From the NCBI GenBank assembly GCA_903951425.1, contig CAJBBX010000063.1:17051-81050 (forward strand): 64,000 bases of DNA, given 5' to 3'. The DNA comes from an uncultured Chthonomonas sp. GTDB lineage: Bacteria > Armatimonadota > Chthonomonadetes > Chthonomonadales > CAJBBX01. The notes below the pieces were generated by a model. The model was not told where the DNA came from. It worked only from the letters and a program-made list of their open reading frames with translations, and did not search any database. Each line of letters begins with the position of its first letter. Within the stretch, counting starts at the first letter, position 1. This document shows positions 48,201-52,362 of this stretch, one piece after another. The position numbers and the translations under genes were made by a program.

Positions 48201-48766
48201 TTCTCACGGCCACAGGACGCACGGTGGCCCTCATCCGGTTCGGCGCCTCGCCGGAGGCAGGCGTGCGCCGGACCGTGCGCGTGCCGGCAGGCCCGTCGGG
48301 GCGCGTGCTGCGGCTGGCCCTGACCTCGAAGCAGTCGCAGGGATGGGATATCGTCACCGACAGGGCGATGCCGCGGGTCGTGGAGGTCGCGGACCTGGGG
48401 ATTCTCGACCGCCTCGTGCCCCGCGTCTTCTGCGCCGCCACGGGAAAGCGCATCCGCCTGACACTCAGGGCCAAGGGCGAGGGCTTCCACGGAGCGGTAA
48501 TCAGCCGGCCCGACGGATCGATCGCGGCGCTGGGCAGGCGCTTCGTTGACTTCGGCGACAACGCCGCCTACACCTTCACGGTGGAGGCGCCCGTCCCCGC
48601 CGGTGTGCGCGGTAGGCTGTGGCAGGTGGACCTGCAGGACGCCGAGGTCATCGCCGCCGAGGGCCTCGCCGCCCACGCCGCCTGCAGCCGGGCCGCGTGG
48701 TTCGCGGTCCCGGCTGCGCGGGGCTCGCGCTACTCCCGGCAGATCACCCGGAAGCCCACGTTGTAG
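45236..48766 (+). CDS. Secreted fusion: N-terminal FGE-sulfatase (SUMF1-like) domain plus large PcRGLX/YetA-like domain
   Basis: The signal peptide is [18 protein letters not shown]. The FGE-type block is [54 protein letters not shown] and GFRCA. Downstream, [15 protein letters not shown] and [20 protein letters not shown] resemble the PcRGLX-like RIFT-barrel and (alpha/alpha)6 region. That second assignment is tentative. Confidence 0.8.
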   Translation: [1176 protein letters not shown]

Positions 48767-51700: not shown

Positions 51701-52362
51701 ATCCTGGCCAGGTAGGTGGCGCCCTTCGGGTAGCCCGCGCCATGCTGGGCCATCAGGTCGCGGACCGCGCGGCGCAGGGCCGGCACCGGGAAGCCCGCCA
51801 CGGCGGAGACGGGATCGATGACATCGCCCGCCGAGGCATCGCCGTCGAGCCGGAAGAAGAACCCCGAGCCGCCCGAGATGTTGTAGACCTTGGCCAGCAG
51901 CCGGTTCTCGCCCGTCCGGAGCGGCAAGGCCAGGCTGTCCTGGTCAGGCGCGGTCACTCGCGGCACATCGTTGGCCAGGAGGCGCACGCCGTTGAGCCAG
52001 ACCGCCAGTCCGTCATCGCTGCCGAACCGCGCCATGACCGTGCGCGCCGCAGGCGAGGTGATGGTCCGCATCAGGTAGGCGGAGCCGTTGTCCGGCAGGC
52101 CCAGATCGTGCGATTGGCCGTCCGGCATGTCGCGCTTCACCCAGCTGACGCCGGCCACGGGCTCGGCGCACGAGACCGAGCGCTCCGGCCCGAACTCCAC
52201 GGCGAAGCCCCGCCCCTCGGTAGGCGTGAACGGCCCGGCCACGTACCAGGAGCCCATGGTGAGCGTTGGCTTTGGGGCCGCCGGGCGCTTCGCGGGCTTC
52301 GGCGCCGCCAGCATGGAAAAGAGGGCGACAGTCGCCGCGATGCAGGCCGAACGAACTAGCAT
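48730..52362 (-). CDS. Secreted 1210-aa multidomain protein: PA14-like, HzsA-like beta-propeller/middle region, two CxxCH motifs, C-terminal FGE-sulfatase-type domain
   Basis: ATG at 52362 with GGAG upstream, and a signal peptide. The PA14-like block is FGSDDGLAVWLNGVRLL...NRLLAKVYN. CQGCH lies at 50206-50220 and CVSCH at 50053-50067. The C-terminal block is YVPPGAFVMGS, VRVTWAEADRFARWLS, LPTETQWEYACRAG, HGNVAEWT, RGGSW and GFRV. Confidence 0.85.
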   Translation of the reverse strand: MLVRSACIAATVALFSMLAAPKPAKRPAAPKPTLTMGSWYVAGPFTPTEGRGFAVEFGPERSVSCAEPVAGVSWVKRDMPDGQSHDLGLPDNGSAYLMRTITSPAARTVMARFGSDDGLAVWLNGVRLLANDVPRVTAPDQDSLALPLRTGENRLLAKVYNISGGSGFFFRLDGDASAGDVIDPVSAVAGFPVPALRRAVRDLMAQHGAGYPKGATYLARIDSLCAAITKGPEGGRDAAVAELAALRREALLANPLLRFDKLLLVRRSEKLMGLPQNWQGNSSIPARGYDNRIERLSIATGARSVVYQPQGGAFVGDLEPHWDARRLLLSMPGTHDRFQLFEMPTEGGEPRQVTPGEEPDVDNYSGAYLPDGRIVYCSTACYIGVPCVGGGDSVGSLYLLDPKSGSARQLTYDQDHSWYPRVLNNGQVLYTRWEYSDTPHYFSRLLFKMNPDGSNQMEEYGSNSFWPNSLFYARPVPGHPSKLTAIVSGHHGVPRMGELMVLDPARGRHEASGVVQRVPGFGKRVDPIIRDQLVETTSPRFLHPFPLSEKYFLVSCQPAGRPWGIYLADVFDNLVCLAEEPGYALLEPVPVMARPMPPATPDRAKVAQKSATIFLADVYRGPGLKGVPRGTVKSLRVYANHYGYRGMGGHVNVGIDGPWDVKRILGTVPVNSRGSALFTAPANLPLVVQPLDAEGKALQVMRSWYTAMPGEFATCQGCHEPQSSAPGLRRPRPEGMVPAKIAPWFGPARGFGFEREVQAPVLQRYCVSCHSGTPGRPDLRARAAVANYRGAFTPAYEALHRFVRRPGNESDYHLQRPREWDAGTSELVQMLKKGHHGVKLAPEAWDRLYTWIDLNVPCHGTWTAQNGAAPERNRRMMELAQKYGGSDIDHEAMPPDLPPSAEVSPMPEAPAQPAQANPAGWPFGPDVAARKRASHRASRVVDLGNGVKLRLTYVPPGAFVMGSNNGALDERPMAARRVDKGFWMAVTETTNAQYARFDPRHDNGVIGMRNKDHTSRGYPMDRPNQPAVRVTWAEADRFARWLSRKTGLKFDLPTETQWEYACRAGSAGPFWFGGLDTDFGRAANMADQSLTALAVAGIDPKPVANPDPLLDWSPKETRFSDGALLPTDAGSFAPNPWGLHDMHGNVAEWTRSVYTRRPGGGDAATDPAAERVVRGGSWYDRPARCTASYRLSYAPWQTVYNVGFRVICRE

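Follow-up and report, generated by a model that had tools for sequence, protein, structure and literature searches.

The gene at positions 48730-52362 on the minus strand of a 64-kb stretch of DNA from a Chthonomonas-like metagenome-assembled genome (MAG) of the Armatimonadota (the whole stretch is called the window below) encodes a 1210-residue protein. With high confidence, this protein is a periplasmic di-haem homologue of the alpha subunit of hydrazine synthase (HZS; alpha subunit, HzsA) and is neither a hydrazine synthase nor a formylglycine-generating enzyme (FGE). Taken as a whole, we read it as a haem oxidoreductase of the periplasm whose substrate would be a small sugar-derived compound, a reading to which we give a probability of roughly 0.4. 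Features of the protein and their positions are collected in Table 1.

The homology to HzsA extends over the entire core of the protein. A profile of aa 185-935 searched against the PDB found 5C2V chain A as its sole match (E 2e-9), in collinear pieces running from the propeller through the second haem motif. We built an AlphaFold2 (AF2) model of aa 21-1210 with 61 relatives (mean predicted local distance difference test (pLDDT) 84.9, predicted template-modelling score 0.77), and the top Foldseek match was again 5C2V_A, with E 4e-22, 788 columns over the 768-residue target and a target-normalised template-modelling (TM) score of 0.59. For a comparison at family level, HzsA genes were recovered from metagenome contigs; a word-indexed protein search with an HzsA fragment gave no match. 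The reconstructed Kuenenia protein of 809 aa matches the published numbering (CSGCH 583-587, Tyr591, Cys303 and His772). Using hhalign, the family (127 sequences) aligned with ten HzsA sequences at 99.6% probability and E 1.4e-22, pairing query residues 224-875 with HzsA 1-809. Residues 224-875 are homologous to the whole of HzsA, not to its middle domain alone. The first-pass annotation had likened a long propeller to the middle domain of the HZS alpha family. This wording conflates two domains, as the Pfam match (HZS_alpha, PF18582; E 3e-26, above the gathering score) is the beta-rich middle domain, while the likeness to HZS that it recognized holds for all of HzsA.

The propeller comprises about 24 strands according to the DSSP pattern, which suggests six blades. 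It is homologous to the N-terminal propeller of HzsA and also resembles TolB in Foldseek searches. We counted conservation in an alignment of 127 full-length relatives with 50-60% identity, to which all fractions of 127 below refer. At 264 positions conservation reaches at least 97%, and the most conserved motifs, densely polar and aromatic, sit in the propeller: RWEYSDTPHYFSR, MNPDG, SNSxWPNS and SGHHG. Invariant residues include Cys387, His490/491, His543 and His650, of which Cys387 has no counterpart in HzsA, where hhalign places a Glu. The number of near-invariant positions and the dense propeller motifs argue for a catalytic rather than a structural role.

Both haem motifs have their equivalents in HzsA. 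The CQGCH motif aligns with CSGCH 583-587 at the haem alpha-I site, and CVSCH with CAMCH 685-689 at the haem alpha-II site (hhalign). For a protein with 16 Cys and 26 His, an analytic estimate gives 0.0045 CxxCH motifs expected by chance (Poisson P for two or more about 1e-5). The first-pass annotation had located both motifs exactly, as the translation confirms. We predict c-type haems at both, given that the motifs are present, invariant and homologous to the haem-binding motifs of a solved structure. The helical domain carrying haem II aligns with the C-terminal domain of HzsA. At the profile level, it matched Cytochrome_CBB3 only weakly (E 0.002, 18.7 bits against a cut-off of 27), below the gathering score, and all class I cytochrome c models of Pfam stayed below threshold for the protein. 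Of the domains for which profile searches had been proposed, HZS_alpha was thus recovered above threshold, whereas Cytochrome_CBB3 fell below it and no PSCyt domain was detected.

The residues around the haems separate the protein from hydrazine synthase. In HzsA, Tyr591 is the iron ligand of haem alpha-I while the motif His binds Zn instead, Cys303 is a Zn ligand next to haem alpha-I, and His772 is the distal ligand of the bis-His haem alpha-II. Tyr591, kept in 10/10 HzsA sequences, aligns with Ser723, a position occupied in the family by Asn (80), Ser (25), Thr (9) or Ala (7). Cys303 (9/10 HzsA) aligns with Pro480, and Pro is found there in 115/127 relatives. As these HZS-specific residues are missing, the protein is not a hydrazine synthase and its haem I should be ordinarily His-ligated. 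The NCBIfam equivalog model for hydrazine_alpha (NF052339) scored 27.8 bits against a cut-off of 800, over aa 659-720 only. Just after the haem I motif, Glu720 and Gln722 are each kept in 122/127. At the distal side of haem II, His772 of HzsA aligns with His836, which is His in 74/127, and because the adjacent His835 is invariant (127/127) a one-residue register shift is likely at this position. Judging from the alignment, haem II is plausibly a bis-His, electron-transferring haem.

The C-terminal domain has the fold of an FGE without its catalytic site. Pfam FGE-sulfatase (PF03781) matches aa 953-1207 (E 4e-42; 145 bits against a cut-off of 23.3) over model positions 7-254 of 255, so that the FGE-sulfatase-type domain proposed from sequence is borne out. 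Foldseek aligned the domain with PvdO (5HHA) at TM 0.74-0.77 and with FGEs at E about 1e-11; besides PvdO (phmmer E 2.9e-17), the solved proteins closest to it are PorK/GldK, ToxD and true FGEs. A BLASTP alignment of the domain with human FGE (SUMF1) was significant (E 9e-15). Here the catalytic Cys336 falls within a 5-residue deletion, and Cys341 aligns with Asp1180 (48823-48825), which is Asp in 125/127 relatives. Two other cysteines, Cys1062 and Cys1185, match the structural disulfide Cys235-Cys346 of human FGE, and Cys1185 is Ala in 95/127. When the last 60 residues were used to look for true FGEs, the search got no further than a Treponema protein of FGE fold. Since both Cu(I)-binding Cys are absent, the domain cannot be an FGE. 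The description of a pseudo-FGE ending in RGGSWYDRPARCTASYR with one Cys at most was correct and, with both catalytic positions gone, even understated.

Assignments to other enzymes of this fold fare no better. The PvdO equivalog model of NCBIfam (NF051459) reached 85.4 bits against a cut-off of 500, and no pvd genes occur among the annotated window genes. The EgtB model scored 41 bits (cut-off 360) and the SenA model 36 bits (cut-off 420). EgtB/OvoA-type enzymes carry a three-His iron site in an N-terminal DinB-type domain, and a Pfam scan of the protein contained no DinB domain. With neither this iron domain nor the FGE cysteines, the database name 'SUMF1/EgtB/PvdO family nonheme iron enzyme' is uninformative. 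Database entries such as P0001, P0016 and P0125 bear this name or 'formylglycine-generating enzyme required for sulfatase activity'. These public names pass over both haem motifs as well as the HZS-alpha core, and the missing catalytic Cys contradict them.

At the N-terminus, the protein begins with MLVR (R4), followed by a 16-residue hydrophobic stretch and a Pro/Lys-rich segment. Relatives start with typical hydrophobic Sec leaders ending in AxA, and the signal peptide proposed in the first-pass annotation is probable on this basis. A Sec-type N-terminus agrees with the export that c-type haem attachment requires. The earlier view of an extracytoplasmic redox protein likewise holds up: the sequence is compatible with export and with two c-type haems, and a di-haem protein of solved structure has the same fold.

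The module following the leader resembles PA14 at most at the level of the fold. A separate AF2 model of aa 31-185 (pLDDT 92.1) found PA14 carbohydrate-binding domains and sugar-binding sandwiches of glycoside hydrolase (GH) families GH2 and GH31 as its best PDB matches in Foldseek (E 5e-5 to 1e-3, TM 0.45-0.56). The PA14 matches include the MpIBP adhesin (6X7Z), Epa1A (4AFA) and PA14 inserts of GH31 and GH3 enzymes, and the GH2 sandwiches score nearly as well. Pfam PA14 (PF07691; gathering score 24 bits) did not match the query even at E<=10, and among six N-terminal modules the best relative reached only 12.7 bits (E 0.11). The claim of a PA14-like module therefore stands at most for the modelled fold and not for the Pfam family. 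Within the module, Asp116 and Asp117 are each Asp in 125/127 relatives. Going by sequence, the pair could be a Ca2+/sugar-binding pair comparable to the 'DcisD' Ca2+-binding motif of PA14 lectins. The helical linker that follows is preceded, in the longer relatives of about 1350 aa, by a helical insertion of about 80 aa after position 176, which is absent from the query. This insertion and an N-terminal helix, both missing in the query, account for the length of about 1350 aa of most relatives.

Table 1. Features of the gene and its product in the window.
Feature	Residues (aa)	Window positions	Strand	Basis
Complete gene, 1210 aa + stop	1-1210	48730..52362	(-)	ORF list, GC3 0.90, near-identical database protein
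Probable Sec signal peptide, MLVRSACIAATVALFSMLAAP	1-21	52300..52362	(-)	Read from sequence
PA14-like beta-sandwich module	36-178	51829..52257	(-)	AF2 model, fold matches
Asp116-Asp117 in GSDDG motif, candidate Ca2+/sugar-binding pair	116-117	52012..52017	(-)	Conservation
Helical linker	184-252	51607..51813	(-)	DSSP helices in AF2 model
Beta-propeller	261-610	50533..51582	(-)	AF2 model, Foldseek (5C2V_A and TolB), hhalign
Cys387 in propeller motif GVPCVGG	387	51202..51204	(-)	Conserved in 127/127
HZS_alpha middle domain, ends in haem I motif	630-720	50203..50475	(-)	Pfam PF18582, PDB profile match
Haem I motif CQGCH	715-719	50206..50220	(-)	Translation; invariant, 127/127
Helical cytochrome-c-like domain, carries haem II	750-885	49708..50115	(-)	DSSP helices
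Haem II motif CVSCH	766-770	50053..50067	(-)	Translation; invariant, 127/127
His835-His836, candidate distal ligand of haem II	835-836	49855..49860	(-)	HzsA alignment
Pro/Ala-rich flexible linker	886-940	49543..49707	(-)	Sequence; lower pLDDT, no secondary structure in model
FGE/PvdO-fold domain	945-1210	48733..49530	(-)	Pfam, Foldseek

The family is large and modular. A word-indexed search returned more than 2173 matches, and a species-level genome scan found relatives in at least 565 species genomes of about ten phyla; the groups represented are Armatimonadota, Planctomycetota, Verrucomicrobiota, Hydrogenedentota, Nitrospirales, Lentisphaerota, Kiritimatiellia, Sumerlaeota and Anaerolineales. 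With the core alone, phmmer against 1.84 billion cluster representatives gave 5097 matches at E<=1e-3 and 1350 at E<=1e-30, each match being a 50%-identity cluster. A widespread and uncharacterised family had been proposed, and these numbers, with no characterised member found, agree with it. Among about 110 alpha-like open reading frames (ORFs) in 80 related loci, 53 combine the PA14-like module, the core and the FGE-like domain, 30 the core and the FGE-like domain, and about 20, mostly tandem paralogues, consist of the core alone. A gene-fusion or assembly artefact is ruled out by the recurrence of the two fused architectures across phyla. Two giant relatives, P0157 (2831 aa) and P0158 (3230 aa), carry an HZS-alpha-like core about 50% identical to that of the query far from both ends.

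All inference on context comes from the gene neighbourhoods of relatives, as the gene itself stands alone in the window. Flanking ORFs were clustered over 80 loci and annotated with Pfam; genes were picked with a criterion on GC content at the third codon position (GC3), and alternative-frame ORFs inside the target were filtered out. Flank families were tallied for the 25 commonest families per side in 78 loci. A cassette common to Nitrospirales, Hydrogenedentota, Planctomycetota, Phycisphaerae and Akkermansiaceae has the order DhaK, DhaL, DeoC/LacD-type aldolase, a 229-aa protein with a twin-arginine translocation (Tat) signal, target homologue, beta-gamma-like gene, RidA/chorismatase-like gene and NHL propeller. 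It looks like an undescribed catabolic operon and is seen at L013 (6437-18218) and also at L011, L025, L040, L027, L038 and L012. All four upstream genes (DhaK, DhaL, aldolase and Tat protein) are present in 16/80 loci, or in 12/44 when at least 4 kb upstream is available. The beta-gamma-like protein, of about 620 aa, is a lactonase/YNCE-type (YVTN) propeller fused to a CCP/MauG-like di-haem cytochrome, and its gene lies directly adjacent on the same strand, usually downstream, in 18/80 loci. Further recurrent flank families are GFO/IDH/MocA oxidoreductases, ThuA, FGGY kinases and RidA, with RidA/L-PSP-type genes downstream in 7 loci. The recurrence of DhaK/DhaL, DeoC-type aldolase, GFO/MocA, ThuA, FGGY and sugar ATP-binding cassette (ABC) transporter genes makes a small sugar-derived molecule, not a polysaccharide, the likely substrate.

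Neighbourhoods of short-type relatives and of the closest relative were annotated individually. In P0018, a sugar ABC transporter precedes the target homologue, a beta-gamma-like gene and three core-only paralogues; in P0075, the homologue is preceded by a gluconolactonase and a CUT1-type sugar ABC transporter and followed by a beta-gamma-like gene, two paralogues and RidA. P0107 has a divergent DhaK-DhaL-DeoC-AckA-PFOR-Pta group, then the homologue, a 218-aa protein and a beta-gamma-like gene. P0004 is accompanied by GH38, a 3-keto-disaccharide hydrolase, a sugar ABC transporter and GH141, and P0113 by GH38, GH2, GFO/MocA and a HEAT plus 3-keto-disaccharide hydrolase gene. The closest relative, P0003 (1363 aa, not of the short type), has GH31/36, beta-helix, SASA and GH2 neighbours.

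Sulfatases, GHs and nitrogen-cycle enzymes were not enriched among the 25 commonest flank families per side, and hao, hdh, nir and nor genes were absent from these families on either side. Nor did we find sulfatases around the closest relative and the short-type relatives, whose six neighbourhoods were annotated one by one, or among the annotated window genes. A link to sulfatases as a candidate context is rejected, as none appears among the commonest flanking families. The GH-rich surroundings of the gene, taken as a family trait, are likewise rejected, as the window neighbours recur only in L005 and L006, close relatives of the same lineage, and so reflect lineage synteny. The survey of flanks that had been suggested, for co-occurrence with GH or sulfatase genes, thus came out negative. 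Of the idea that the protein is glycan-directed, the polysaccharide side finds no counterpart in the family flanks, while genes for uptake and catabolism of small sugars do recur.

Several further observations concern these loci. Tandem alpha-like paralogues occur in 20/80 loci, in arrays of up to five diverged copies (L066 3987-20974; L114 9396-15314; L115 14111-18945). Many array members are without the PA14-like and FGE-like modules, and the arrays usually end with or adjoin one beta-gamma-like gene. The protein of about 229 aa lies directly upstream of the target homologue in 23 loci (e.g. L027 889-1575 (+)); apart from its twin-arginine signal it has no other Pfam domain, and by eye it seems to show a cupin-like HxH...E...H pattern. 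In a Verrucomicrobia subdivision 3 MAG (P0096), the family gene is flanked by a stand-alone gene for a 392-aa protein with an FGE-sulfatase domain and by one for a HEAT/TPR protein that matches cytochrome c552 weakly (395-1573 and 8148-10238). Two loci of the flank tally likewise have separate FGE-like genes upstream.

The anatomy, the homology to HzsA and the negative assignments are shown by the results above. The course of events that we propose next infers which class of substrate is used, which way electrons flow and what the accessory modules do. The protein would be exported by Sec to the periplasm as a four-module enzyme. A small, polar, sugar-derived substrate would bind in the conserved propeller funnel over haem I and be oxidised or reduced there; by analogy with HzsA, haem I, with an ordinary His ligand, would face this funnel as the catalytic site. 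Haem I would exchange electrons with haem II, which is probably bis-His ligated, and from haem II they would pass to a soluble periplasmic carrier or, in many relatives, to the beta-gamma-like partner encoded next door. The PA14-like sandwich and the FGE-like (C-type-lectin-like) domain may bind ligand or partners. In relatives, the product might then be imported by an ABC sugar transporter, phosphorylated by the DhaK/DhaL kinase and split by the DeoC/LacD-type aldolase.

A number of points weigh against this proposal. We found no characterised member of the family, so that substrate and reaction are derived from context. That context is uneven: of the loci sampled, only some 20-25% (about a fifth to a quarter) contain the cassette, and neither DhaK, DhaL, an aldolase, a Tat protein nor a beta-gamma-like gene lies within the 64-kb window, whose GH genes reflect lineage synteny only. 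The likeness of the modelled N-terminal module to PA14 is weak (TM about 0.5, no Pfam match). Furthermore, RidA-like neighbours and HZS ancestry fit nitrogen (imine/amine) chemistry equally well.

This last point leads to an alternative that we consider unlikely, namely that the protein is a nitrogen-compound oxidoreductase like HZS alpha, converting NO, hydroxylamine, an amine or an imine at haem I with a beta-gamma-like partner encoded elsewhere in the genome. The full-length homology to HzsA speaks for it, as do the imine-handling RidA/L-PSP-type genes downstream in 7 loci and the beta-gamma-like gene, which besides the 18/80 loci is adjacent in 3/6 further short-type relatives (P0107, P0018 and P0075). 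Alternative substrates for HZS-like enzymes were proposed by Suarez et al. 2023 (PMC10732223). However, the active-site residues of HzsA are not kept (Tyr591 to Ser723, Cys303 to Pro480), a loss that Hagglund et al. 2025 (PMC12758564) report for other non-anammox homologues as well. The commonest flank families lack hao, hdh, nir and nor, no partner gene is present in the window, and what recurs on the cytoplasmic side is a ketose-type kinase, an aldolase and sugar transporters as partners.

It is quite improbable that the haems merely shuttle electrons and that the propeller, PA14-like and FGE-like modules dock a non-catalytic carrier or scaffold to partners or the envelope, as with PorK/GldK in type IX secretion. 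The FGE-like domain, devoid of catalytic residues, does resemble the structural lipoproteins PorK/GldK, the propeller resembles TolB, a protein-interaction propeller, and the gene has no operon partners in the window. Conservation nevertheless exceeds what docking needs, with 264 near-invariant positions, the propeller motifs, Cys387, Glu720 and Gln722; the homologous haem of HzsA is a catalytic site; and the diverged tandem paralogues, up to five at L066, look like substrate diversification. Very improbable, finally, is a periplasmic protein modifier in which the Cys-less FGE-like domain binds a sulfatase-type or other peptide for oxidation by the haems, a haem-dependent substitute for FGE after export. 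The FGE fold keeps the scaffold of the substrate groove, the family is common in sulfatase-rich phyla (Planctomycetota, Verrucomicrobiota and Kiritimatiellia), and it is suggestive that a PvdO-like domain, of a kind linked to oxidation, is fused to a unit for electron transfer. Yet sulfatases are missing from the commonest flank families (78 loci), the six annotated neighbourhoods and the annotated window genes, about 20 of about 110 alpha-like paralogues have no FGE-like domain, and both catalytic Cys are gone, with a conserved Asp in one of the positions. Our best reading remains a haem oxidoreductase of a small sugar-derived compound.

The gene itself is complete. It begins with ATG, and its codon-position GC (GC3 0.90, GC2 0.52) is like that of other real genes in this window of 70% GC. 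A public 1210-aa database protein is identical except for one residue, and its 90% cluster includes MCX6358532.1 from an Armatimonadota MAG. The closest genome loci among the matches listed are from an Armatimonadota MAG of Lac Pavin (95%) and an uncultured Chthonomonas MAG (93%). Otherwise the window consists of the ordinary chromosome of a heterotroph rich in carbohydrate-active enzymes (CAZymes), with GH2, DUF2961, GH32, GH127, GH95, esterases, a trp operon, DciA and a MacB-type ABC exporter; none of the 38 window genes encodes another CxxCH protein.

The convergent neighbour (45236-48766 (+)) encodes 1176 aa with an N-terminal FGE-sulfatase domain (Pfam, E 1.6e-49), after which come a PcRGLX-like RIFT barrel and a GH127-like domain. 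The FGE-like domain of this neighbour shares 27% identity with that of the target (E 1e-11) and, by eye, also seems to be without the Cys pair. At their 3' ends the two genes have 37 nt in common, so that no terminator fits between them. Within the GH cluster, a 974-aa ORF (59677-62601 (+)) has a strong coding signal (GC3 0.88) and no Pfam match at E<=0.001. Overlaps between the ORFs at 1253-4165 (-) and 3600-5594 (+) (about 560 nt) and at 36553-38490 (-) and 38229-40778 (-) (about 260 nt) are probably not real; most likely the mechanical 'first start after a stop' rule has placed start codons too far upstream. The trp cluster (10857-19321 (-)) comprises trpA, a PALP-type trpB, trpF, trpC, trpD and anthranilate synthase I and is interrupted by an M24 peptidase gene (15872-16984).

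Hydrazine synthase is the signature enzyme of anammox, and a de novo origin has been proposed for it on the grounds that so few homologues were known. The family described here offers a concrete pool of candidate ancestors, with the full alpha architecture and often a beta-gamma-like partner in ordinary heterotrophs. Its members adjoin genes for sugar uptake and sugar cleavage, and the cassette offers an experimentally tractable route to the ancestral chemistry. It is doubtful, though worth stating, that the family and its propeller/di-haem CCP-like partner form a widespread, unrecognised class of periplasmic two-component haem enzymes for the catabolism of sugar or amino-sugar derivatives, and maybe also the ancestral stock of anammox hydrazine synthase. 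In that case the conserved cassette would stand for a catabolic pathway that is new, as would be its haem chemistry. For database users, the name 'SUMF1/EgtB/PvdO family nonheme iron enzyme' can be corrected, as it hides a di-haem cytochrome. The practical value of the single gene in the window is modest, since it stands alone and its substrate cannot be named.

Already known are distant HZS-alpha homologues of unknown function outside anammox, and fusions of cytochromes with carbohydrate-binding modules in genomes of the Planctomycetes-Verrucomicrobia-Chlamydiae (PVC) group. In the searchable literature we found no description of the PA14-like/HZS-alpha/FGE-like fusion, of its scale or of its presence in Armatimonadota, and none of the DhaKL-aldolase-Tat-alpha-beta/gamma-RidA cassette. 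Searched by term or consulted in the passages concerned, PMC12758564 and PMC10732223 make no mention of PA14-like or FGE-like fusions, the DhaKL-aldolase cassette or Armatimonadota members; the terms 'FGE', 'sulfatase' and 'formylglycine' have 0 occurrences in PMC12758564.

Compared with known systems, the C-terminal domain shares with FGE (SUMF1) a full-length Pfam domain, the same fold and Ca-site-type motifs such as HGNVAEW, and differs in having neither Cu(I)-binding Cys nor a sulfatase context. PvdO (5HHA) comes closer, being periplasmic, tied to oxidation and of FGE fold without the FGE catalytic cysteines. It is needed for the last oxidation in pyoverdine maturation by an electron route that is unknown, and the purified protein contained no cofactor, was inactive and is suspected to require an electron-transfer partner (PMC6206403). 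In contrast to PvdO, which stands alone with about 280 aa and belongs to pyoverdine clusters, the domain described here is fused to a di-haem unit. If the family does form the unrecognised class of two-component haem enzymes considered above, this fusion would explain the inactivity of isolated PvdO-type proteins. To PA14 domains, the N-terminal module, as modelled, is alike as a beta-sandwich of similar topology with an Asp-Asp pair that recalls DcisD, whereas it stays under every Pfam PA14 threshold and its sugar binding is putative.

PSCyt1-3 proteins of PVC phyla, with PSD and carbohydrate-binding module (CBM) domains, are exported c-type cytochromes proposed to act on mono- or oligosaccharides (PMC5615132). 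They too are large, exported, of unknown function, fused to carbohydrate-binding-type modules including PA14 and abundant in the same polysaccharide-degrading phyla. The protein studied here contains no PSCyt or PSD Pfam domain, and its haem domains are of the HZS-alpha type. Closest in kind are the non-anammox HZS_alpha proteins. Few have been reported, more than 20 in RefSeq and about 600 by Foldseek (PMC12758564, PMC10732223), and the 2025 survey lists none with an experimentally confirmed function (PMC12758564). They are distant HzsA homologues from Planctomycetota and other phyla with two haem motifs, the HZS catalytic residues not kept, often beside beta-gamma-like genes and of unknown function, which all applies to the present family. 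Further differences are one of number, with 5097 50%-identity clusters here against the few reported, and one at the putative distal ligand, as this family keeps a His at or next to the His772 position that their clade I lacks. One of our loci, from Phycisphaerae OFTM243 (L051), probably comes from the work of Suarez et al., given the shared isolate-name prefix OFTM.

HzsA itself (kuste2861 of Kuenenia stuttgartiensis, 5C2V_A) has the same domain order over its full length, both haem motifs align exactly, a His aligns with the distal ligand of haem alpha-II or with its neighbour, and many relatives adjoin a propeller plus di-haem CCP-like gene resembling a fused beta-gamma subunit. On the other hand, identity is only about 16-25%, Tyr591 and Cys303 are absent, and the gene belongs to a CAZyme-rich Armatimonadota MAG with no anammox genes nearby. 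To the architecture of HzsA it adds three modules (PA14-like sandwich, helical linker and FGE-like domain) and the invariant Cys387.

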